A stretch of 64,000 nt of DNA from Octopus sinensis (taxonomy: Eukaryota), in NCBI RefSeq assembly GCF_006345805.1, contig NC_043016.1:29884001-29948000 (forward strand), given 5' to 3'. The stretch's first letter is position 1. Each line of letters begins with the position of its first letter. Positions 2,583 through 64,000 of this stretch are shown here, piece by piece. The notes beneath the pieces were generated by a model. That model searched no databases and had not been told where the DNA came from. It saw nothing but the letters and a program-made list of their open reading frames with translations. A program made the position numbers and the translations under genes.

Positions 2583-3478
2583 ATTGAATTCAAGGTAACA
2601 AGAATGAAATATCAGTTCTGAATAAAGATATAACAACTGCTAATTGTTTAGAGTCAACAGATCTGTCTTTTATTCAAACACTTTAAGTAGGACTACATAA
2701 TCTAATGTGTCTGTTCAATTTTTTTAAACAGAGTATGCTTTGAGGGAAATTTAGGTGCTGTTTCTAGCAGGTAGAGTGACTGAACAGATGCTGTTTCATT
2801 GGCTTGTAGCTGTTGTTGATGTTAAGTGTTTAGGAACAACCTGTTTAGCCAGTACCTTGACTATGATGAGACTCTCTCAATAAAGGTGTTTGAATTGGGG
2901 TAAGTCAAATTTGTATACTATCCAATGGCAATATGTTTTGGTTCTAAATCTTAAGAGACAGAAAGACCGTATTTAAAGAACAGATCATGAAACCTACTGA
3001 AGTTATGTCATTGCTGACAATAGTCAAGGTTCAAGTGTCATTGTATACAGAAATAATGTGAGGCAGGAGGAAAAAAAAAACATATTGATAATAATAAGAG
3101 AACATGGATTGTAATACTGTAAACCAGAAGGATAAATCCTATTCTTTAATATATAGTTTCACAAATAGCAGTTATGTTTGTCTTTATCTTCTATCTTAAA
3201 CTCTAATCCAAAGATATTTGCCAAGTATCAACTTGAACCTACATTTGCTAAGAATTTTGCACTAAGACAAGCACTTGGATCACAAGGACAAATATAGAAA
3301 CAGCACCTAAATTTCCCTCAAAGCATACTCTGTTTAAAAAAATTGAACAGACACATTAGATTATGTAGTCCTACTTAAAGTGTTTGAATAAAAGACAGAT
3401 CTGTTGACTCTAAACAATTAGCAGTTGTTATATCTTTATTCAGAACTGATATTTCATTCTTGTTACCTTGAATTCAAT
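2583..3478. repeat. 184-bp inverted duplication (arms 2583-2766 and 3295-3478, spacer about 528 bp)
   Basis: The arm ATTGAATTCAAGGTAAC...GGTGCTGTTTCTA is the reverse complement of TAGAAACAGCACC...GTTACCTTGAATTCAAT; no mismatch seen by eye. Confidence 0.95.
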
Positions 3479-3928
3479 TATGGAAAAAAGGGGGTTAATA
3501 AGATGTTAAAAGTAAGAAGGATAAATCAGAATAAAATTCTATCCACTGGGATAAAAAAGATAAGCAGCTTAAACATATTAAATGTGATAATTTAAAGTAT
3601 TTTAACAAAAAATTTTTACTTTAAATATTATAATAATCTTTTGTCCTAGACATTTTTGTAAGGCTTTGGACACATATTTAAACAATATAGTATAGATAAA
3701 TGTAAAAAATAGATGTATGTACATGTGAGAAAGATATATATATATGTGTGTGAGTGAAATAAATAAATACATAGGTGAATTATATCTATCTGTCTGTCTG
3801 CCTGCCTGTCTCTCTGTCTATCTATCTATCGATCTATCTATCTATCAATCCACCTATATACACACATGTGTGTGAAAATAAGATATATGTATATGTATGT
3901 GAAAGATAGATATGTAGAAAAGACATGT

Positions 3929-6287: not shown

Positions 6288-6640
6288 GACAGAGGGTGTT
6301 AGAATACCTACAATGCTAGAAATAAGAGCTAAAGTGCTCTGCTACAGCAGTCAATGCACATAATTGTATACATACATACTGACAGCGACAGAAAACAGCT
6401 GAAAGTGGCTGTTATGACATCCCTATAACATTGATGGTTTTGGCTTAAAGACTGCTGACAATGTTGTCTAGAAACTGGTGAGTTGTGCTGACCTTGTTGA
6501 TAGTACAAGGACTGCCATTTTTGGCTGTTTATAGTCGCTGTCAGTGTGTATATGTGTATATAATTATGTATGTTGACTGCAACATCAGAGCACTTTAAGC
6601 TCTTATTTCTAGCATTGTAGCTATTTTAACAGCCTCAGTC
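6288..6640. repeat. Fold-back element (arms about 6288-6412 and 6511-6640)
   Basis: CTACAATGCTAGAAATAAGAGCT pairs with AGCTCTTATTTCTAGCATTGTAG; CTGACAGCGAC pairs with GTCGCTGTCAG. Confidence 0.85.
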
Positions 6641-8610: not shown

Positions 8611-8699
8611 TTAATATATACATATATATATTAAATAAAATGAGACGAACAAAGCCAAGGCTGTGTGGATTTTTCAGGACATTTATAAAGAGAAAGATA

Positions 8700-8747
8700 G
8701 TCTTACAGTGGTTTCTGGGATATTAGGGATATTCCTTCATCAGAGAC
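8700..8747 (-). ncRNA. Minimal hammerhead motif, decayed; same family as 26181-26228
   Basis: Reverse complement: gtct CTGATGA aggaatat ccct aatatcc ca GAAA ccactg TA agac. The flank (8640-8690) matches the arm of the 26121 fold-back. Confidence 0.6.
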
Positions 8748-9011
8748 ATTACCTGCTACCTTGGGTCTTCTGGATACCAATATCTCTCTATATATATATA
8801 TATTAGATATTTCTTGTGTGTACAGCTAGATATACATCTAGTACCAGTGAGATTAGAGCTAACAATTGCACATGGAACACTACAGAGGGTGCAAATAATG
8901 GCAATAGTGAAATATATGTAGGGAAAAAAGAATATAAACTGCAAGCACATTTTTTTGTTAATCTTACCTTAACAGAACAATAAACTGTGTATGTATGTAT
9001 CTATGTATGTA

Positions 9012-12880: not shown

Positions 12881-13031
12881 GGTATCTTACTGTATTCAAG
12901 AAGACCTCTCCTTCACAGCAGAAGTGTTATTAAGGCTGTATTCCCAAGTGAGGATCATCGGCCTCGATGGGTCCTGTGCCAGTGCCACAACTGGTGCTAT
13001 GAAAGAGGGCTCATGCAATGTCACATTAAAA

Positions 13032-14405
13032 GCACCCAGCACACACTATAAAGTGGTTGGCACTAGGAAGGGCATCCAGCTGTAGAAACCAAACCAAATC
13101 AGACTGGAACCTGGTGCAGCTCTCCAGCTTGCCACCTCTAGCACTCAGTACACACTATAAAGTGGTTGGCACTAGGAAGGGGCATCCAGCTGTAGAAACC
13201 AAGCCAAATCAGATTGGAACCTGGTGCAGTTCTCCAGCTTGCCATCTCTAGCACTCAGCACACACTATAAAGTGGTTGGCACTAGGAAGGGCATTCAGCT
13301 GTAGAAACCAAGCCAAATCAGATTGGAACCTTGTGCAGCTCTCCAGCTTACCACCTCTAGCACTCAGCACACACTATAAAGTGGTTGGCACTAGGAAGGG
13401 CATCCAGCTGTAGAAACCAAGCCATATGAGACTGGAACCTGGTGCAGCTCTCCAGCTTGCCACCTCTAGCACTCAGTACACACTATAAAGTGGTTGGCAC
13501 TAGGAAGGGGCATCCAGCTGTAGAAACCAAGCCAAATCAGATTGGAACCTGGTGCAGTTCTCCAGCTTGCCATCTCTAGCACTCAGCACACACTATAAAG
13601 TGGTTGGCACTAGGAAGGGGCATCCAGCTGTAGAAACCAAACCAAATCAGACTGGAACCTGGTGCAGTTCTCCAGCTTGCCATCTCTAGCACTCAGCACA
13701 CACTATAAAGTGGTTGGCACTAGGAAGGGCACCCAGCTGTAGAAACCAAACCAAATCAGACTGGAACCTGGTGCAGTTCTCCAGCTTGCCATCTCTAGCA
13801 CTCAGCACACACTATAAAGTGGTTGGCACTAGGAAGGGCATTCAGCTGTAGAAACCAAGCCAAATCAGACTGGAACCTGGTGCAGCTCTCCAGCTTGCCA
13901 CCTCTAGCACTCAGTACACACTATAAAGTGGTTGGCACTAGGAAGGGCATCCAGCCATAGAAACCAAACCAAATCAGACTGGAACTTGGTGCAGCTCTCC
14001 AGCTTGTCACCTCTAGCACTCAGTACACACTATAAAGTGGTTGGCACTAGGAAGGGCATCCAGCTGTAGAAACCAAGCCAAATCAGACTGGAACCTTGGG
14101 CAGCTCTCCAGCTTACCACCTCTAGCACTCAGTACACACTATAAAGTGGTTGGCACTAGGAAGGGCATCCAGCTGTAGAAACCAAGCCAAATCAGACTGG
14201 AACCTTGTGCAGCTCTCAACCTTGCCACCTCTAGCACTCAGCACACACTATAAAGTGGTTGGCACTAGGAAGGGCATCCAGCCATAGAAACCAAACCAAA
14301 TCAGACAGGAACTTGGTGCAGCTCTCCAGCTTGCCAGCTCCAGTCAAACCATCAAACCCATGCCAGCACAGAAAACAGACGTGAAAGGATGGTGATGATG
14401 ATGAT
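13032..14405 (+). repeat. Tandem array of 12 x 109-110 bp units derived from the RTE-related 3'-end repeat
   Basis: Units start at about 13032, 13141, 13251, 13360, 13469, 13579, 13689, 13798, 13907, 14016, 14125 and 14234. The last unit runs into the normal element end and (GAT)n tail. Confidence 0.97.
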
Positions 14406-14721
14406 TATTTAGGATTTGTATATGATAATTAATAAACACCTATCTGAAAACTTAACTTTTAAAATAATAAAACTGAGTTAATTTTGTATATCAGATACTT
14501 GTACTTTATTCATATCCACAGAAAAAGTGTATGGAGTTTCATGCCTGATGTACTGAGATATCGTTAATATTTTAATAATAGCAGAAATAATAAAAAATAA
14601 TTCACAACTTAAACATTCTCCACTCCAATCTCATCAAAACAAAAAAAACATAGTTTTAAAAATATTTCTTTTCTATCATTGTCCATATTCCAGACTGGTA
14701 TGGATTTCTATAATGATATTT

Positions 14722-17632: not shown

Positions 17633-18100
17633 TAATAGACATAGAGAGAATTTGAACTTAGAATGTAATGAGCTGCAAGAAATACCACAAAGATTTTCTC
17701 TTCTTTTTCACCAATGCTAATAAAACAACCAATCTATTATGATAACACCTCAGTGTGTGTGTGTGTATGTGCGAGATAAGCATACACACATTACTGAAAC
17801 TAAATAGCTAAACAGCTGATTTGATTGATCTTGAGGTTCGCTCACTCTCATATATATAGAGAAAGAGAGAATGAGGAGGGTAGGAGGAGCTAATAGTGAG
17901 GGATTATCAATCTGGGCAACATACTTCGTAAGCTCTCTGTTGGCACACCAGTCTAACAATATTGTTTAGATTGGTAAAGAACTCCAAGTATTCTTATGGC
18001 AGGGTCATCACAATTCTGTATTGTAAATCCATGGTTGGGCTCCAGACAAACTGGTCTTTAAACAGGGTAATATGTAAGACAAGCTATAAATAATGGACAA

Positions 18101-18412
18101 TACATATTTTTCCCTTATTAGAGTAAATTTGGCTTACAGCTGTTTCCAGTAGTCATTATAGGTGTGTTGCTGATGGATTCACTCAACTGGTCTATTGATC
18201 AGTTTAGTAAAATTGAACGGCCTAAAAAAAATTAATCCTACTTTTGTCAGAAACCAGAAATGGCTCTGACGAAAATAGCATTAGTTTTTAGGTTGTTTGA
18301 TTTTTCTCAACTCGTCACTAGACCAACTGAGTTAGCTTATCGGTAATGTACCTATAATGACTACTGGAAACAGCTGTAAGCCAAATTTACTCCAATAAAG
18401 GAAAACTATGTA
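18101..18412. mobile_element. Fold-back element whose arms are each a long-stem-II hammerhead unit
   Basis: Arms 18101-18255 and 18261-18412. GAGTAAATTTGGCTTACAGCTGTTTCCAGTAGTCATTATAGGT is exactly inverted at about 18350-18392. Confidence 0.8.
18261..18383 (+). ncRNA. Type I hammerhead motif with about 94-nt stem II region
   Basis: tggct CTGACGA [94 nt] GAAA cagctg TA agcca. Stem I is tggct/agcca, stem III is the palindrome ACAGCUGU, the cleavage triplet is GUA. Confidence 0.65.
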
Positions 18413-18449
18413 ATGACTTAGTTACACCTTGACTTATATATATATATAT

Positions 18450-26085: not shown

Positions 26086-26120
26086 TATGTGTGTGTATAG
26101 ATATATATATATATAAATAT

Positions 26121-26718
26121 AATTAACAGAATGAGATAAAAATCCAAGGCTGTGAAAGATATCAGAACATTTATAAGTAGGTCTTACAGCTGTTTCCGGG
26201 ATATTTTATATATTCCTTCATCAGAGACGGTGTGAGAAAATGGATAAGCAATAGTTATTCTAGAAAAGATATGAAATAGAGAGTGAAGTGGAGGAATGAA
26301 CACAGACATGAGATATGCAGGGATATTGTATCTGTAGTTCCATTATTTAGTTTACATTATAAGTTTCCTGTACCTTTTGTGTAAGTTCCAAGCATAGAGT
26401 TTGCAGAGTGTTATTGAATCCACCATATACAAACTCTATGCTTGGAATGACCAATTTTAAATACTATTGGAACTCACACACAAGGTACAGGAAACTTATA
26501 CGTATACCATTCTGCCTAAATAATAGAACTTCGGATACAATATCCCTGCATATCTCACGTCTGTTTTCATTCCTCCACTTCACTCACTATTTCATATCTT
26601 ATCCAGAATAACTATTGCTTATCCATTTTCTCACATATCCTGGAAACAGCTGCTTGACCTTTTTATAAATGTTCTGAAATCTTTCACAGCCTTGGATTTT
26701 TATCTCATTCTATTAATT
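26121..26718. mobile_element. About 600-bp fold-back element (arms 26121-26403 and 26430-26718) with a hammerhead in the left arm
   Basis: Long inverted arms with scattered mismatches, e.g. GTGAGAAAATGGATAAGCAATAGTTATTCT / AGAATAACTATTGCTTATCCATTTTCTCAC. Confidence 0.9.
26181..26228 (-). ncRNA. Minimal type I hammerhead ribozyme motif, core intact
   Basis: Reverse complement: gtct CTGATGA a ggaatat ataaa atatccc g GAAA cagctg TA agac. Confidence 0.75.
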
Positions 26719-26853
26719 TTTTTATATATACGCATGCCGATATATGACCTACATTGGACTCCTCATTCACATAATCACCAAACCTGGAGCTTAAGTATAG
26801 TCTGTGCATACCACTTACTCAGCATTACCTGACACCTTTGGGTCTTCTTCTTG

Positions 26854-36290: not shown

Positions 36291-37561
36291 ATGTAGTTTA
36301 GACAGAGCTGAGTACATTTATTTTAAACAAGTTCTTCACCAAAGTTGTCTAAGGTAAGATATCATTTTATAGATTAAGTGTTTACAAAGATATTGAGGAG
36401 GGTTTTGTATAGCGTCATCAGTCTGTCAGACATGTGTTTCCACATGGTCAAACCTTAAGTTATATATGCTGCTACAGCTGTTCATGATCGAGTTACCCTC
36501 CATGTATCTGACCCACTTTCTCTGTAAATTCTGTTGTACAATTGTACACTTGAAAAGCATCCAGTCCACACTGTGAAGTGGCTGACCTCTGAAAGGGTAT
36601 TCAGCAATAAAATCCATGCCAAAACAGACCTCGCCTGTATCGGTGCCACATAAAAAGCATTCAGTCCACTCTGCAGGGTGGTTAGTGTTAAGAAGGGCAT
36701 CCAGCTGCAAAAACCCTGCCAAAATAGACACAATGGTCTTCTACCTGGCTGGCTCCAGTCAACCAGTCCAACCCATGCCAGCATGGAAGGTGGATATTAA
36801 ACGATGACAATTATCACACACACACGCACACACACACTGTTGATAGTTCAGTTACTTCAATGAGTCACCTTGTCTGATGATAACAATGAGGTTATCATGG
36901 CAGACACATATTTTGCCCACTGATATTGATATGGCCAAGTTTATAGACTCATCTATATGCACCTGATGTTCATCAACTTCCAATCACCTCAACAACTGCA
37001 ATTTTACATCCCAATATGAGGTTTTCCATAGCACCTTAAATGAATTTTCAGGATTTATGGTTGCAGCCATTTTCCACTTGTAATGGATAAACAAATGTGT
37101 GAACAATTTGGATGTATGGAGAAGTATGTATGAGTATCATCATCATGATCACCATCATTATCATCATTTTCACACCAACCATGTTTCCATGCTTGCATGG
37201 GTCAGATGGAATTTGCTGAGGTGAGTTTTGTACAGCCAGATGACCTTCTTGTTGCCAGTCCTCCCCTGTTTCCAAGTGAGCTAATATGTCCCCATGACCA
37301 GGTATGCTTTCATGGAATGTTAGAAATGAAGGACACCACTTGCATGAGAGTGACACCTGCTTACAACTATTATGTGATTTCAAAACAAGGAGACAGAATC
37401 TAAGACAGACAGATACACACACACACACGCACACATATGACAAGCTTCTTTTAGTTTCCATCTACCAAATCTACTTATTCGTAAGGTCTTGGTCAGCAAG
37501 GGGCTATTGCAGAAGACACTTGCTCAAAGTGCCAACAGTGGGACTAAACTTGGAAGTATGC

Positions 37562-37710
37562 ACATTATTTACATTATTTACATTTGATGGATATTTCTCC
37601 TCATCTTGTTTGTTGTTAACACAACATTTCGGCTGATATACCCTCCAGCCTTCATCAGGTGTCTTGGGGAAATTTCGAACCTGGATTCTCATTCCTAAGA
37701 TATTTTTCGA

Positions 37711-37741
<31 letters not shown>

Positions 37742-37840
37742 GTTGTTGTTGTTCATGTCACTGCTTGGAATTGAACTCGGAATCTTGGGGTTAGTAGCAT
37801 GCGCTCTTAACCACTACGCCATATGCTCATGGGCATATGT
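37562..37840 (-). mobile_element. tRNA-headed hammerhead-carrying SINE, near full length, inserted into another SINE
   Basis: Reverse complement: GCATATGGCGTAGTGGTTAAGAGCGC (A-box)...GAGTTCAATTCC (B-box), (AAT)n, hammerhead, (AATGTAAAT)n tail. Flanked by the direct repeat TGGAAGTATGCA at 37551-37562 and 37848-37859. Confidence 0.8.
37618..37663 (-). ncRNA. Minimal type I hammerhead ribozyme motif
   Basis: Reverse complement: gacac CTGATGA a ggctg gagggtatat cagcc GAAA tg TT gtgtt; stem I is gacac/gtgtt. Confidence 0.7.
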
Positions 37841-44063: not shown

Positions 44064-45448
44064 TTAACCCTTTAGTTACTGTTTCTATCGAAATACACTG
44101 CCTTTGTTTTGAAAATAATAAAGAATTTAGCAAAATAATAATAATTAAGCAGATGTTTGAAACAAATTTAACATGAAATTTTTAATAGAAGGTTTTAATT
44201 TAGACCACTTTAAATGTGGAAGTTTGTTTCATGGCACTGGTGGCAGTTTTAGTTTGGATGCCAACCAAAAGGGTTAACCCATTCGCATTTAAATCAGCCA
44301 TATTTGGCCCAAGTATTGTACCTGCTTTATGTTCAAAATGGCTAGATCCAACCTCTCACACCCACCTTCCAATGTTAGTCACGTAATTGAAATCCCAGTG
44401 CTACAAGATAATGCAGGATAAATTGAAAACAATGAGTAAATAAGCATTACATTGGACAAAGTAGGCTGAATGCTAAAAGATTAAACTGTTGCATTTGAAG
44501 TGTTTAGTTACTCTTTATAACAGAGAGCTTGCAGATCATGATAAGGATTATGTGAATTGTACTATTAAGATCATAAAATGATAAACTATAGAGTATTGAA
44601 AATATCACAGGAATTGTTAATCTGCAATATCAAATACCAAATAATGATTTAACCCTTTAGAATTCAGATTACTTTGTCAAATGCAATGCTGATTTATTCA
44701 CATTGTTTTGTATAATTCATGCATTATCTTATAGCTTCAAGATTTCGATGATGTAATTGCATATTTTTTGAATGACATTATAGGACTGGTGCGCGAGACT
44801 GGTTCTGACTGGTTTGAACATGAAACAAATGGAATATTTAGGCTGGGTATGGCCGGTTTAAATGCTAAAGGGTTAAAACAGATGTCACAAGCTTGAATAT
44901 TCTGGTAGTTATTGAGAAAGAGATTGGGCTGCTATATTTATGACTTCTGTAGTATGTAAATATAACAGAACCATGTAATATGTGCTACAGGTTCAATACG
45001 ATACGCTTTGCAAATTCTAAAACATTTGCCAACATTTCCAATCAGGCAGTTTGCCAGTGTGTATATTCTGTTGAGATCAAAGGTTTGTATTTCGACAAGT
45101 ATCTACTTAGAGAATGTTGTAAATGGGCAAGTTGCTTGCTTCTACATAACTTTCCTTGTCTTAGCTCATTGCAGAAAATACATCCTGTTTTACAAATTAT
45201 TGACGGGACAGTAGATCTTTTAACCTTTTCATTACCAACCCGACTGAAACCGGCTCTGGCTCTGTATTACAAATGTCTTGTTTTCATAAGTTTTTAATTA
45301 AAATCTTCTACCAAACCTTAGTCACAATTTATGTTCCCAACACTAGCTTAGTGATAACGAAGTTATTTTACTAAATTCTTTGTTATATTTCAAATAATTG
45401 AAAGAAACACAGAGCATCTCAAAATAAATATGGTAACGAAAGGGTTAA
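44064..45448. mobile_element. Cluster of four TTAA-flanked piggyBac-type MITEs (44064-44277, 44274-44484, 44649-44876, 45220-45448)
   Basis: Each is bounded by TTAA with CCC/GGG-type termini; the first two share one TTAA. Confidence 0.85.
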
Positions 45449-47563: not shown

Positions 47564-47955
47564 TAGCACACCGAATACTGCATTATTAGCCCTGAAAGAT
47601 CCTCTCATATCAGTGCTTGGTACAAAAGAAGCACACATAGATCGCAGCAGGTGAGAATTGTCTGTCATGGGCACCTTCCATTACTAATAATTAATTTTTA
47701 ATAAGCTTGCTGACTATTTGCAAATTCAGTGTCTGAAAAGATGCTAATATATCATAGCAGTGAGATCAGACTGGGATGTGGTGACTGGACGCTTCTCACT
47801 GATGACTTCCAGTAGAATGAAATCATATGATCTGGGAGTTCTGGCACCCATGACAGATGATTCTTGTCTGCTGTGATCTATGTGTGTACTTCTATGCACC
47901 AAGCACCTCTATGAGAGGATCTCTCAAGGCTAATAACACAGTACTGGGTGTTCTA
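47564..47955. mobile_element. Fold-back element (arms 47564-47675 and 47843-47955) with a hammerhead in the loop
   Basis: GATCCTCTCATA / TATGAGAGGATC, CACACATAGATC / GATCTATGTGTG, TCTGTCATGGG / CCCATGACAGA. Confidence 0.85.
47793..47838 (+). ncRNA. Minimal type I hammerhead motif
   Basis: ttctca CTGATGA c ttc cagta gaa t GAAA tcatatga TC tgggag. Palindromic stem III AUCAUAUGAU, cleavage triplet AUC; the first stem II pair is mismatched. Confidence 0.65.
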
Positions 47956-54072: not shown

Positions 54073-54460
54073 GCTGTGTGGTAAGAAGCTTGCTTTCCAA
54101 CCACATGGTTCCAGGTTCAGTCCCACTGTGTGACACCTTGGACAAGTGTCTTCTGCAATAGCCTTGGACTGACTAAAGCCTCGTAAATGGATTTGGAAAT
54201 GGAAACTGAAAGAAGCCTGTCATATATAAATATATATATAATTGTGAGTGTCTTTGTGTCTGTGTTTGTCATCCCATCACCTGACAATTGATGTTGGTGC
54301 GTTTACGTCCCCGTAGCTTAGCAGTCCAGCAAAAGAAACCGATAGACTAAATACTAAGCTTACAAAGAATAAGTCCTGGGATTGATTTCTTCAACTAAAA
54401 CCCTTTAAGGCAGTGCTCCAGCATGGCTGCAGTCAAATGACTGAAACATGTAAAAGAAAC
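54073..54460 (+). mobile_element. SINE family A
   Basis: Forward full-length copy. Confidence 0.85.
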
Positions 54461-54489
54461 AATGAAAGATGTAATGTTGAGTACGACAT

Positions 54490-55089
54490 TCTGTTTTTGA
54501 TTCGACGGTCATTCGGAATGCTCACAGCAGCCATATTCCTGCCACTCTATGTCACGCTGGTGAGACCCATATTGGAGTATGGGATTCAAGCCTCTTCTCC
54601 TTATCTCCTCAAAGACATACAGCACCTCGAAAGAGTCCAGAGGCTGGCTACCCGCATGGTTCATGGTCTCAAAAATTTGTCCTACGAAGAAAGGCTTGAG
54701 GACGCTCGACCTTTGTTCTCTTGAAAAACGCTGCCGCCGTGGTGATCTCATTCTCACCCACAACATCATAAGCGGGAAGTGTAACCTCTCGAAAGAGCTG
54801 TTCTTCACTCTGCTCCGGAGCGTCGGCTGCGGGGTCATTCCGAAAAGCTCTACCTGCGACGATTTCATCTCAATCGAAGGAGAGGAGCTTTCTCCGTCGG
54901 GTTGCGGATCCGTGGAACAAGCTGCCAGACGAGATGGTGAAGATGCCGACGACCGCTTTGTTCAAAGCCTCCCTGGACCTCAAGTGGCCTGAACTCTTTA
55001 CATGAACACCACCCTGTACTTAACTCCATGTCCCCCTACATGGCCTTGCTATTTGCTTTTGAGCCAAATTAACTAACTAACTAACTAAC
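54490..55089 (+). mobile_element. 5'-truncated CR1-clade LINE (ORF2 C-terminus, 3'UTR, (TAAC)n tail)
   Basis: LYVTLVRPILEYG..SPYLLKDIQHLERVQRLATRMV..LSYEERL / LDL.SLEKR.RRGDLI / LRGHSEKL..FS..WNKLP, with frameshifts. Target-site duplication ACGACAT at 54483-54489 and 55088-55094. Confidence 0.9.
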
Positions 55090-57315: not shown

Positions 57316-57370
57316 GGCAGTCTGATGATGACTTAACTGGCTGAACAGCTGAAACTTAGAAGTTACTATC
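57316..57370 (+). ncRNA. Decayed hammerhead motif
   Basis: ggcagt CTGATGA tgacttaact ggctg aa cagct GAAA cttagaag TT actatc; stem II is irregular. Confidence 0.45.
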
Positions 57371-57981: not shown

Positions 57982-59535
57982 TAGTTGATAGCTTTTGTTA
58001 CTAAGATGTAATTAGTAAGGGAGGAAGTTACTCCAAAAGTATAGTGGCCAGAGTAAGGACAGGTCAGAGAAAGATTGGCAAAGCAGTATCACCTTAGGGT
58101 ACTAAAAAAGCAAAGGAGATGCCTTAGAGAGAAGCAATTATAGAGGAATCAAATTACTGAATCAGATTATGAAGGTCAAGAAAGGGTCATAGCTCAATTG
58201 GCCCATGACAGAGTAGAACTAAATGAGATGCAGCTAGGTTTCCTATCCAGTAAAGGTACTACGGATGCAATATTCCTAGTGAGGCAACTGCAACAGAAAT
58301 ACTTGGCTAATAGTAAATCATTATTCCAGGCTTTCGTTGATTTGGAGGTGTTTGACAGGGTATCACATACAGGAATCTGGTCCTTAATGAAGCTAGATGT
58401 TGGCATATGGCTTGTGAGAGCTGTACAAGCCATGTACAAAAATGCAATAAATGAAAGTCAACAACTTCTATGATGAGTTTAGCAAAATGCTTGCAGTCCA
58501 TCAAAGTTCAGTTTTCAGTCTCCTCCCATTCATAATAGTCCTACAGGAATCACAGAACAGTTTAAGACTGGTTATCTATGGGAACTCCAATGTGCTAATG
58601 ATCTAGTTCTCATAGCTAAATCTATAGAAGAATTAGAGAGAAAATTTCAGGCATGGAAACTAAAGCCTAAAATTGAGAGGTCTTAAAATACATTTGGTAA
58701 AGGCAAAGGTTTTAAAATGTAGGAAAGGAGACAGGAAGTTGGTACATTCAGTGAAACAGCCTTATTCAATATGTAGAAAAGGAGAAATTATAAATTTGAT
58801 ACAAGGTACCCAATGTAAGCTATGGGCAAAAGAGATGTAACAGAATCTCAGGCAGACTAGCAGAGAACAAAAGCTTCATATATGATAGACACACTGGAGC
58901 AGTACATACTATGAACACACCAGAAATAGACTTCCCTGAATGCCTGGATGGCTCACTAAAATTAGTTGATAGCTTTTGTTATTAGGGAGATGTAATTAGT
59001 AAGGGAGGAGGTTACTCCAAAAGCATAGTGGCCAGAGTAAGGACAGGTCAGAGAAAGATCAGGGAGAAACTACTGCTGCTAGCAACAAATGTGAAAGGTA
59101 GATTGTAATAATGCTTGTGTTAGAAGTGCAATGCTGCATGGCTCTGAGACATGGGTTTTAAACACAAAGGACGTAAGGAGTCTTGGAAAAAAAAAAAAAA
59201 CGAAGCAAGCCTGCTCTGTTGGATGAGCAATGTGAGTGTGTATGAAAGACATAGTATAGAAGTGATGTATGGAAAAATGGGCATAAGAGATGTCACATGT
59301 AGTGTGCAGGAAAGAAGATTGTGCTGGTATGGACAATGTATGGATAAGGACAGTTGCATAAAGATGTGCCAATCATTTAATGTGGTTAGAGCTTGTGGAA
59401 GAGTGAAGCTAAGGGAGTCAAGGAATGAAATGGTGAAGACTAACTTCAGGACCCAGAACCTCAAAGTAGATTTGACAAAGGACTAGGATGACTGGAAATA
59501 CATAGTTCTCAAGAAGACTTGTCCACCTCAGCGAA
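57982..59535 (+). mobile_element. Decayed RTE-clade LINE (RT domain through C-terminus)
   Basis: QLGFLSSKGTTDAIFLVRQLQQKYL...AFVDLE.FDRV; VHQSSVFSLLPFIIVL; ELQCANDLVL (YADD relic); VQERRLCWYG; many stops and frameshifts. Confidence 0.92.
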
Positions 59536-61687: not shown

Positions 61688-61793
61688 ATCACCTGAAGAA
61701 ATACATCTGCACCAATGGATGTTCCTGAACCATTAGTTAAGTATCCCAGCTGTGAGGGATCAATGCTAGGTGGGTTGAAACTATTGTAGTGAT
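61688..61793 (+). ncRNA. Type I hammerhead motif with branched, about 77-nt stem II domain
   Basis: atcac CTGAAGA [aatacatct..aatgg/ccatt..atccc/gggat..aggtgggtt] GAAA ctattg TA gtgat, followed by AATAAA. Confidence 0.55.
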
Positions 61794-62106: not shown

Positions 62107-63920
62107 TATACACACACACACACATATATAATGACTCCCTTACCTATGAGTCAAATACAACAATCCCTGACTCATTTTTCGAATCAGTCTTTATATGACT
62201 GATCAACAATGGCATTTGAAATTTGCCAGTGATTTATAGATCTTGTATTATTGATAAAATGTTCAATGCATTGACTGCATAACCATTAACCAACTCACTG
62301 TTATCTGATCTGATCTGCTGCAACAAGCAACCAAAAAAAAGGTTAAAAATAATATATTACAAGTAAGTTTCATATGAAAGTACTGCATTCCTTTAATAAG
62401 GGACATTCCCTACCTAGCTCTTCAGCAGTGCTTGTGCAAGTGTAACAGTAATCTCAATGTCACTTGGACATCCCACCTCCACAGTTGATCAAAGTCTAAA
62501 ACAATCATTATAGGAAGAGAACATAGAGACTCTATGGTATTTTGAAACCAGATACAACATTCTAGTAAGTTAAATGATTTATCTTCTGCAAAAAACATTG
62601 GTGCTGGTGTCACATGAAGAGCACTGGTGATAGTGCCATGTAAAATGCACCGAGTACTCTCTGTAGAGTGGCGTTAAGAAGGGCATCCAGCTGTAGAAAC
62701 CAAGTCAAAACAGACAACTGGACTTGGTGCAGCACCTGGCTGTGCCAGCTTCTGACAAACTGTTCAATCCAAGTCAGCATAGAAAATGGACATCAAACAA
62801 TGATGAAGAATGGTAATATCTCCCTGTCTTCAGCAGTGGTTCTCAACCTATGTCAACTCAGGGCCTCACCTAGTGCACTAAATAATATTTCATAACTATC
62901 TCTCCACCAAACCCTCCTTTTTTTTTTTTTTTCTTTGCAAAAGAGAAAAAAAATAGAAAAGATTATTTATACTACTCTAACCATCGTGTGATTTCTCTTA
63001 GATACCTGTATGGAAATAACTAGAAAAAGCAGTGACTTATGTAATGAAGTTATATTGGGTCTTGGCATATCATCAATCAGGTTTCCTGCTCAATGCTATA
63101 ATAATGTCCTATTTATACTTTTCAATCTTGACAAAGATCTCTAAAAATTAATTAAAATTTAAATATTGCATGTGGTTTAGGTATTATATTTCTAAGAAAA
63201 ATCCTAACCCCATTCTGAATACCTAGTGCCCTATATATTAGTTTCTTGACATTTGCAGCCCTAATGCAATGAGCTCACAAAACACTTGCATCCAAAAGAG
63301 CTTTACCAATTACATAACATAGTGTCATCAACACCTATCAGTCATTCAGCTTTGGGGTTTCTTGTAGCGAATTTTGCATGGCTTAATTCTAATGCCAAAT
63401 CATTCACATGAAGAAAATTATATGTAGCTCAGCTAATGAGAGAGCCACTAAGTGGTCACTCAACATGCTAATAATTGCAGCCTAATCACAACTAGAATCT
63501 TAAAAAAAACAGAAATACATATTTAACAATTAATTCAATCCAATGTTATGGGCAATATGATTAGTGAAGTTCAACTAAACTACAGTCTTTAGCAAAGAAA
63601 TATATTTTTCGATTTATGTTAGCCAGAAAAAAGTCAGGGCAATGTCCGTGATCTGTATGAGCTCTTCACATGGCTTATGTCTAATTTGAACTTTTGAGAA
63701 CCGATGTTCATAAGAAAAACGCGTGGGCAGGGAGTAAGTTTTAGAAAGCTGTAGTTCTGCAGAGGACACAATTAGAGGAAGTGCTTCAAGCAGGAAGAGA
63801 TTGAAAAAAGACAGATGTATTGGAGTGTTGTGAACAAGCTTGTTTGTTTGAAAAGCTGGACCTCTTTGAGTAAGTATCAGTTTGTTTACTTGCACAAATC
63901 CTTGTACAGACCACTTTGCA

Positions 63921-63999
63921 TCTCTGTTTAATTTGTCTGTGGAGAAATCTATAGAAGACGGATATCTATATATTTCTCCACAGATAAATAAAACAGAAA
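63921..63999. repeat. Hairpin / centre of a fold-back that probably extends past the window
   Basis: TCTGTTTAATTTGTCTGTGGAGAAATCTATAGA ... TCTATATATTTCTCCACAGATAAATAAAACAGA. Confidence 0.75.
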
Positions 64000-64000
64000 T

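Follow-up and report, generated by a model that had tools for sequence, protein, structure and literature searches.

The closest described relatives of the element analysed here are the minimal type I hammerhead ribozymes of metazoan Penelope-like elements (PLEs). These motifs combine a CUGANGA core half followed by an extra nucleotide, a stem I of 4–5 bp (3–5 bp at its widest range), a stem II of about 4–8 bp with a small loop and a G10.1–C11.1 closing pair, a short palindromic stem III, and an AU-rich 3′ flank. Most of them are found without an open reading frame (ORF), and pairs on opposite strands lie 100–700 bp apart; with so short a palindromic stem III, monomers were inactive and dimers weak, and a same-sense partner is reported to be needed (PMC4209133). 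In the Hydra clade of PLEs, the hammerhead lies near the 3′ end and (TA)n tracts are the targets; one family is listed in Octopus bimaculoides, and one family has an inverted 5′-truncated copy (PMC8557442). Inverted junctions have also been described in Penelope, with inverted copies of the 3′ end, a palindrome at the junction and AT-rich targets. The head-to-head layout is the commonest and is ascribed to self-priming, and the pLTRs alone are enough for mobilization in trans (PMC3846280). Regarding the biochemistry, the PLE template is uncleaved RNA, both target strands are extended in vitro, and cleavage needs protein (PMC11167929). Two further systems are worth comparing. Non-LTR retrozymes are PLE-related units of small size that do not code for protein and contain a type I hammerhead (PMC7229834; bioRxiv 10.64898/2026.07.22.740005), arranged in head-to-tail tandems that allow dimer cleavage and circles (PMC7229834). 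In the discontinuous Clec2 hammerheads, a natural ribozyme is split by a large insertion (summarised in PMC2950038).

The element described in this work lies near 18 kb in the window, that is, the whole stretch of 64,000 nucleotides of octopus DNA that was analysed, which is AT-rich, laden with repeats and without long genes. We consider it likely to be a decayed PLE insertion in which two copies of the 3′ end were fused head to head, a remnant of fold-back. Its features, with the evidence in brackets, are the following:

18075–18436, both strands: whole head-to-head palindrome, two putative copies of a Penelope-like 3′ end (pLTR-like unit) (arm alignment, self-BLAST)
18075–18256, minus (sense): left arm, decayed hammerhead copy and 3′ tail (alignment to the right arm)
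18244–18250, minus: broken core of the left arm, with G8 changed to A at 18245 and one extra nucleotide at 18251 between stem I and core (sequence, register test)
18257–18260, plus: central loop of 4 nt, GAAA on this strand (whole-element fold)
18261–18265, plus: stem I, 5′ strand (pairs with 18379–18383; present in the single-arm minimum-energy fold)
18266–18273, plus: CUGANGA core half and the extra nucleotide typical of PLE hammerheads (consensus CUGANGAH in the PMC4209133 supplement)
18274–18365, plus: stem II region of 92 nt (95 nt in the left arm), a decayed long hairpin with an A–U and not a G–C closing pair (cross-arm fold and identity tests)
18350–18392, both strands: 43-nt block identical to the reverse complement of 18121–18163 (permutation)
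18366–18378, plus: extra purine, GAAA, palindromic stem III (8 nt, self-complementary) and GUA cleavage triplet at 18376–18378 (sequence)
18379–18383, plus: stem I, 3′ strand (pairs with 18261–18265)
18384–18436, plus: 3′ region downstream of the hammerhead, reaching into a (TA)n tract at 18435–18449 (sequence, alignment)

The right arm has the parts that the initial annotation assigned to it: a 5-bp stem I, the core at 18266–18272, 94 nt, GAAA at 18367 and GUA at 18376–18378. As read from its sequence, it is a complete minimal hammerhead motif of type I, in which the CUGANGA and GAAA cores and an NUH triplet follow one another in the type I order, and its stem I falls inside the range of the PLE minimal hammerheads. 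The extra nucleotide after the core is an A (18273), the same as in two relatives in the window (at 26224 and 8743), and the 8-nt palindromic stem III is computed to form a self-duplex with a second copy at -11.1 kcal/mol. Such motifs are more frequent than chance would give. A strict hammerhead descriptor has four matches in the window, where 100 shuffles have 0.06 on average; when a palindromic stem III is also required, two matches are left, and none of the 100 shuffles has any. From the local composition, about 1.4e-5 occurrences are expected of the core with a 5-bp strand of stem I no more than 120 nt away. Rfam nonetheless gave no match at the gathering score over the whole window; with E values up to 10, six weak matches were obtained at the 18-kb element, none of them to a hammerhead family, and no hammerhead family at 26100–26320 or 37540–37760. 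It had been predicted that the long stem II would be missed by standard covariance models. The miss by Rfam is real, but stem length is not its sole cause, since the short-stem-II motifs at 26224 and 37658 are missed too.

The palindrome is formed by two arms and a 4-nt loop, with 141 matches in 182 columns, and self-BLAST recovers it as an inverted repeat at 18070–18441 (E 2e-72). The inverted repeat first proposed at 18101–18412 is present (121 matches and 31 mismatches there), and the likeness of the arms continues out to 18075 and 18436, a result that 0 of 20,000 shuffles equalled. The whole element folds far better than expected (z = -19; 0 of 100 shuffles equally stable). Both arms begin exactly at the first base of the hammerhead stem I. 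At the outer ends, the right arm abuts (TA)n, a kind of tract that is common in the window, while the left arm ends at a short AT-rich run without a clean (TA)n tract, and no target-site duplication was recognised at 18075–18436. The identity between the arms is uneven. The annotation described the outer 45 bp or so as identical and the inner parts as diverged; an identical run does exist (43 nt, 18350–18392) and exceeds chance (27 of 200,000 permutations; 11 of 20,000 with gap columns removed), but it is internal and not outermost, the 46 columns outside it comprising 35 matches, 9 mismatches and 2 gaps.

The core of the left arm, on the minus strand, has decayed to CUGACAA, as had been noticed at the outset. 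A change of the same G8 (tested as G8C) abolished cleavage in a PLE hammerhead (PMC11167929), and the left copy, judged by its sequence, is probably dead and unlikely to cleave. With the left core broken by the G8-to-A change and the insertion, the element contains at most one ribozyme. Of the original description of two head-to-head long-stem-II hammerheads, the hammerhead origin, the head-to-head layout and a former long stem II are supported, whereas the count of two ribozymes is not, the left G8 being lost.

Two relatives with a short stem II are found in the same window:

26108–26730, both strands: second palindrome with head-to-head arms, TA-rich tracts at both ends and, at 26224–26185 (minus), an intact short-stem-II hammerhead (alignment, self-BLAST)
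8628–8785, minus: solo unit flanked on each side by a TA tract, with a short-stem-II hammerhead at 8743–8704 (121 columns aligned to the 26-kb arm, 74% identity)

The other arm of the 26-kb palindrome has lost its core through a 27-nt deletion. This palindrome is a better candidate for a cleavage test than the 18-kb element. Both relatives have 21-nt inserts and the G–C closing pair of the PLE minimal type, which the long form lacks. The core, the extra A after it, the extra purine before GAAA and the layout of stem I are common to the three; one pair of stem I covaries, being G–C in the long form and U–A in both relatives. The stem III of the 26-kb motif is the same as that of the long form, and that of the 8.7-kb motif differs at two loop positions. 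It is only in some 30 nt surrounding GAAA that the long and short forms are alike (nhmmer E 0.07–0.13). Because no alignment to the short family is obtained for the flanks beyond the motif, the long form is, at the level of sequence, a separate family and not an edited short copy. The identical run between the arms of the 26-kb palindrome is not in excess (10,037 of 20,000). In the solo unit, a further 6-bp match was seen by eye between the sequence upstream of stem I and the 3′ region.

Other arrangements in the window resemble these in part. A fourth hammerhead, of the classical PLE minimal type with a G–C-closed stem II, lies at 37560–37720 (minus, core at 37658); its 3′ region recurs near 1750–1830, with the same translated words, and matches mis-annotated octopus proteins. 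Both protein-search hits of a frame near 37.6 kb (2 of 2) are from Octopus bimaculoides, which identifies the host as an octopus. At 61688–61793 (plus) there is a possible second long-insert hammerhead, with a 5-bp stem I, an intact core, a 77-nt insert and a non-palindromic loop 3; its 3′ flank is faintly like the short family, it has no inverted partner, and the chance expectation is 0.06 per window. Weaker CUGAUGA...GAAA arrangements with poor stems, probably decayed or due to chance, occur at 47793–47838 and 57322–57362 (plus). The palindrome at 6288–6640, which begins at a (TA)n tract, is conserved in its outer part and diverged in its inner part, has no recognisable hammerhead and was taken as a control. 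It contains a 34-nt identical run (7 of 20,000), so that uneven arm identity needs no ribozyme-specific cause.

At the level of sequence, the stem II region of 92–95 nt is the only unusual trait of the element, and it is longer than in every published row compared: counted by eye, the region is about 25 nt or less in all 56 rows of the PLE supplement (PMC4209133) and does not exceed about 50 nt in 34 rows of the Hydra-clade table (PMC8557442). Compared with the same 56 rows, an A–U pair replaces G10.1–C11.1, and the extra purine before GAAA has one counterpart (AGAAA in 1 of 56). In the discontinuous Clec2 hammerheads, the insertions were sought in loops 1 or 3 of ribozymes in the 3′ UTR of mRNAs (PMC2950038), while here it is the stem II of a putative retroelement that is expanded. 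The insert of the long form is an inverted repeat itself; both of its borders are in register with the extra nucleotides, and its base is paired over 5 bp in the left arm. The pairings first proposed for that base (agtag/ctact and taggt/accta) both exist, though not in the same arm, agtag being found only in the left and taggt only in the right.

No present-day arm folds into this hairpin better than chance. The right arm alone is no more stable than its shuffles (z +0.33), neither is the insert within single arms (z -0.4 and -0.88), and RNAalifold on both arms recovered neither the hammerhead nor the base of the long stem II (13 pairs, one of them compensatory). The signal appears only across the arms. 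When the halves of the two inserts are compared, the right 5′ half and the complement of the left 3′ half align with a score of 34, reached by 0 of 2000 shuffles, while the three remaining of the four half pairings are not significant (465, 699 and 1595 of 2000 shuffles). Joined into one crossover sequence, these two halves also give the best fold, at -25.1 kcal/mol; the same statistic on column-shuffled inserts is -17.9 +/- 2.7, and 1 of 200 reaches the observed value. Since significance is found only across halves of different arms, stem II is ancestral: the sequence from which both arms descend had a long hairpin here, of which one side persists in the right arm and the other in the left, and the hairpin is now decayed.

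The long stem II may be private to the 18-kb locus. Within the 64-kb window there is no second copy of the long form, an exact 24-nt scan of GTDB genomes gave 0 loci, and blastn of the element against plasmids and phages gave no match. A gapped pattern of the short family had one locus, in a bacterial metagenome-assembled genome, which lacks stem I pairing and was attributed to chance. A T-rich run that ends in AG near 18291 raised the possibility of an intron inside the insert, for which no donor was seen by eye at a workable distance. In the literature searched, neither an octopus long-stem-II hammerhead nor a palindromic hammerhead mini-element was found reported, and the work on PLE hammerhead dimers and Terminons may list longer variants.

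The RNA of the whole element is not predicted to adopt the ribozyme fold. Forcing the hammerhead costs about 103 kcal/mol in the full transcript, 8.8 in the lone arm and 5.6–6.1 in the short relatives, all from nearest-neighbour energies that ignore tertiary contacts. Transcription of either strand would reach the antisense arm before the sense one. For all four transcript starts between 18070 and 18240, which include the upstream arm, the probability of stem I is 0.000, and it rises to 0.04–0.15 for three starts at 18250–18259, near the centre of the element. The idea that fold-back competes with cleavage on either strand is accordingly not supported, as in these models fold-back abolishes the hammerhead fold instead. 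That idea also overlooked the dimer that such motifs are reported to need (PMC4209133) and the Penelope-like origin, in which head-to-head pairs are a common by-product (PMC3846280). Within the element there is no same-sense partner for the stem III duplex, nor does the window contain a direct repeat of the unit of the kind seen in retrozyme tandems (PMC7229834), the 18-kb element being inverted. Most likely, as far as these models indicate, the locus is without catalysis today, a silent hairpin-forming relic. If transcribed, the palindrome would yield long double-stranded RNA. In the window, A exceeds T in 24 of 32 bins and C exceeds G in 26 of 32; such base skews hint that any host transcription would be on the minus strand, the carrier of the broken copy.

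An origin from a PLE is suggested by the core features, the head-to-head layout and, less clearly, the (TA)n junctions, which agree with published PLE ends and most nearly with the Hydra clade. Membership in the PLEs is assigned here by RNA motif and layout, and the resemblance to the Hydra clade by hammerhead style. As in the PLE minimal hammerheads (PMC4209133), the CUGANGA with its extra nucleotide, the stem I of 4–5 bp and the short palindromic stem III come with an AU-rich 3′ flank and a pair on opposite strands. In the Hydra-clade 3′ ends (PMC8557442, File S2), 4 of 26 rows have a stem III of the acag..ctgt type, and 19 of 26 (counted by eye) carry an extra nucleotide on each side of stem II; the position near the 3′ end is likewise shared, and the (TA)n targets may be. 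On the other hand, the octopus Hydra hammerhead listed there has another sequence, and the 18-kb element lacks stem III loop nucleotides and an ORF and has a stem II several times longer; the GAAA–stem III motif has 0 matches in the supplement of that work, where line breaks could hide one. The inverted, 5′-truncated, head-to-head layout is seen at 18075–18436, with a second case at 26108–26730; in contrast to the Penelope junctions (PMC3846280), the arms are only about 180 nt long, no ORF or direct pLTR follows and no target-site duplication was recognised. Pfam detected no reverse transcriptase or GIY-YIG remnant in the 24 longer frames searched (of 113 long ones) or in 70 short frames near the motifs, giving a single unrelated hit below threshold. 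A Naiad origin was also considered; over a short stretch compared by eye, the 3′ end of the Naiad element of O. bimaculoides does not resemble the 18-kb unit.

The following course of events would account for the element. Each arm consists of one hammerhead unit (stem I, core, stem II, GAAA, palindromic stem III, GUA and stem I) and about 55 nt of 3′ sequence, with the right end at (TA)n. In the parent family, the stem II hairpin of the hammerhead would have measured about 90 nt, and weak cleavage after GUA would have taken place in dimers, in which same-sense copies were paired through the palindromic stem III, perhaps with the aid of a protein. A PLE reverse transcriptase may then have started at the 3′ end of the uncleaved RNA and copied it as far as the 5′ edge of the hammerhead, after which the new strand would have folded back over the 4-nt loop and copied itself, and the product would have been placed at a TA-rich site. 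According to the computed folds, RNA reading through from either side would form one long hairpin and no ribozyme, and stem I would be possible only for RNA started at the centre. Arms born identical should diverge evenly and the observed arms do not, so that an extra event is needed: the 43-nt identical block may reflect a later homogenisation between the arms by template switch or gene conversion. Arm homogenisation through template switching is a described process (PMC8604942, PMC3820800).

Several other explanations have to be weighed against this fold-back remnant. A possible, if rather doubtful, one, which overlaps with it, is that stem II was short, as usual, in the parent family, and that the 90-nt hairpin arose in one lineage just before fold-back, by a local insertion or a template switch, and was probably inactivating. 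The 21-nt inserts of both relatives, the inverted-repeat nature of the insert and the short stem II regions of all the published rows point in this direction; an insert in register with the extra nucleotides and paired at its base (5 bp, left arm) does not, and neither do the flanks, which place the long form in a family of its own. We regard as unlikely an octopus PLE-derived family with a conserved stem II of about 90 nt that spreads as a self-locking palindrome, the antisense arm shielding the RNA from its own ribozyme. Quite unlikely is a non-autonomous palindromic PLE derivative spreading as a unit through a rod-like RNA of one strand, in which the right arm would be the ribozyme and the left arm an antisense lock or a protein-binding end. 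Such a derivative would fit the plus strand in several ways: this strand is 12 kcal/mol more stable than the minus, its central loop is a GNRA, its two copies of the 5′ strand of stem II are alike while the other two have diverged, and the arm mismatches of the inner part lean to G.U on it (14 vs 5, p 0.064), the change that killed the left core included. The identical 43-nt block round GAAA and the sufficiency of pLTRs for trans mobilization (PMC3846280) also speak for it. Over the whole element, however, the G.U bias is not significant (14 vs 8, p 0.29); the 26-kb palindrome has no such bias (7 vs 6 in one count, 3 vs 8 in another) and is more stable on the opposite strand, the hammerhead-free 6-kb palindrome leans likewise (17 vs 7), and a single copy of the element is seen.

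The two remaining explanations assign the palindrome either to another kind of transposon or to a living function. A MITE or foldback DNA transposon with a TA target duplication at 18101/18412, whose hammerhead was captured or accidental, is very improbable. TA dinucleotides do bound 18101–18412, and the inner part is more diverged than the outer, as in the 6-kb palindrome, but the likeness of the arms runs 25 nt beyond the TA sites (0 of 20,000 shuffles), the best-conserved block is internal with only 35 matches in the outer 46 columns, the arms start exactly at stem I and the motif is far beyond chance. A working switch between fold-back and self-cleavage on either strand is barely credible: the intact core of the right arm and the stem I formed at low probability in centre-started transcripts would allow it, against which stand the broken left core, the antisense arm made first on either strand, the penalty of 103 kcal/mol (and still 8.8 in the lone arm, above the short relatives in the same model), the inactivity of comparable motifs as monomers (PMC4209133) and the lack of a same-sense partner in the element.

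The window contains other repeats apart from these elements. Inverted arms of 187 nt, 99% complementary and 528 nt apart, lie at 2580–2766 and 3295–3481 and resemble a young MITE-type insertion. A tandem array at 13019–14408 is built of about 12 units of 109–110 nt derived from a dispersed SINE-like repeat. Two inverted copies of an element of about 220 nt are found at 44274–44485 and 44648–44876, the right copy having short inverted ends and TTAA; we take these ends to be piggyBac-like. Frames at 54386–55005 and 58144–58473 look by eye like remnants of LINE reverse transcriptases, with no match in Pfam, and a palindrome of about 80 nt (63920–64000) touches the end of the window.

The architecture of the 18-kb element is already known, and the locus mainly adds an octopus example of it. 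Its length of stem II would matter more broadly if it were a family trait. The published search for hammerhead cores allowed 7–17 nt and noted 35–50 nt as exceptions (PMC8557442); long-armed hammerheads, if they are real, would be invisible to descriptors that limit the core spacing to 17–50 nt and could explain some of the "half core" PLE families, including the Naiads of octopus and squid (PMC8557442). In that case, counts of hammerheads in animal genomes would be too low, and the stated lack of hammerheads in some Penelope-like clades may partly reflect the limits of the searches. The octopus is an animal with heavy RNA editing. Two hammerhead palindromes in 64 kb suggest that such hairpins may be frequent in octopus DNA, where they would be a possible source of long double-stranded RNA.
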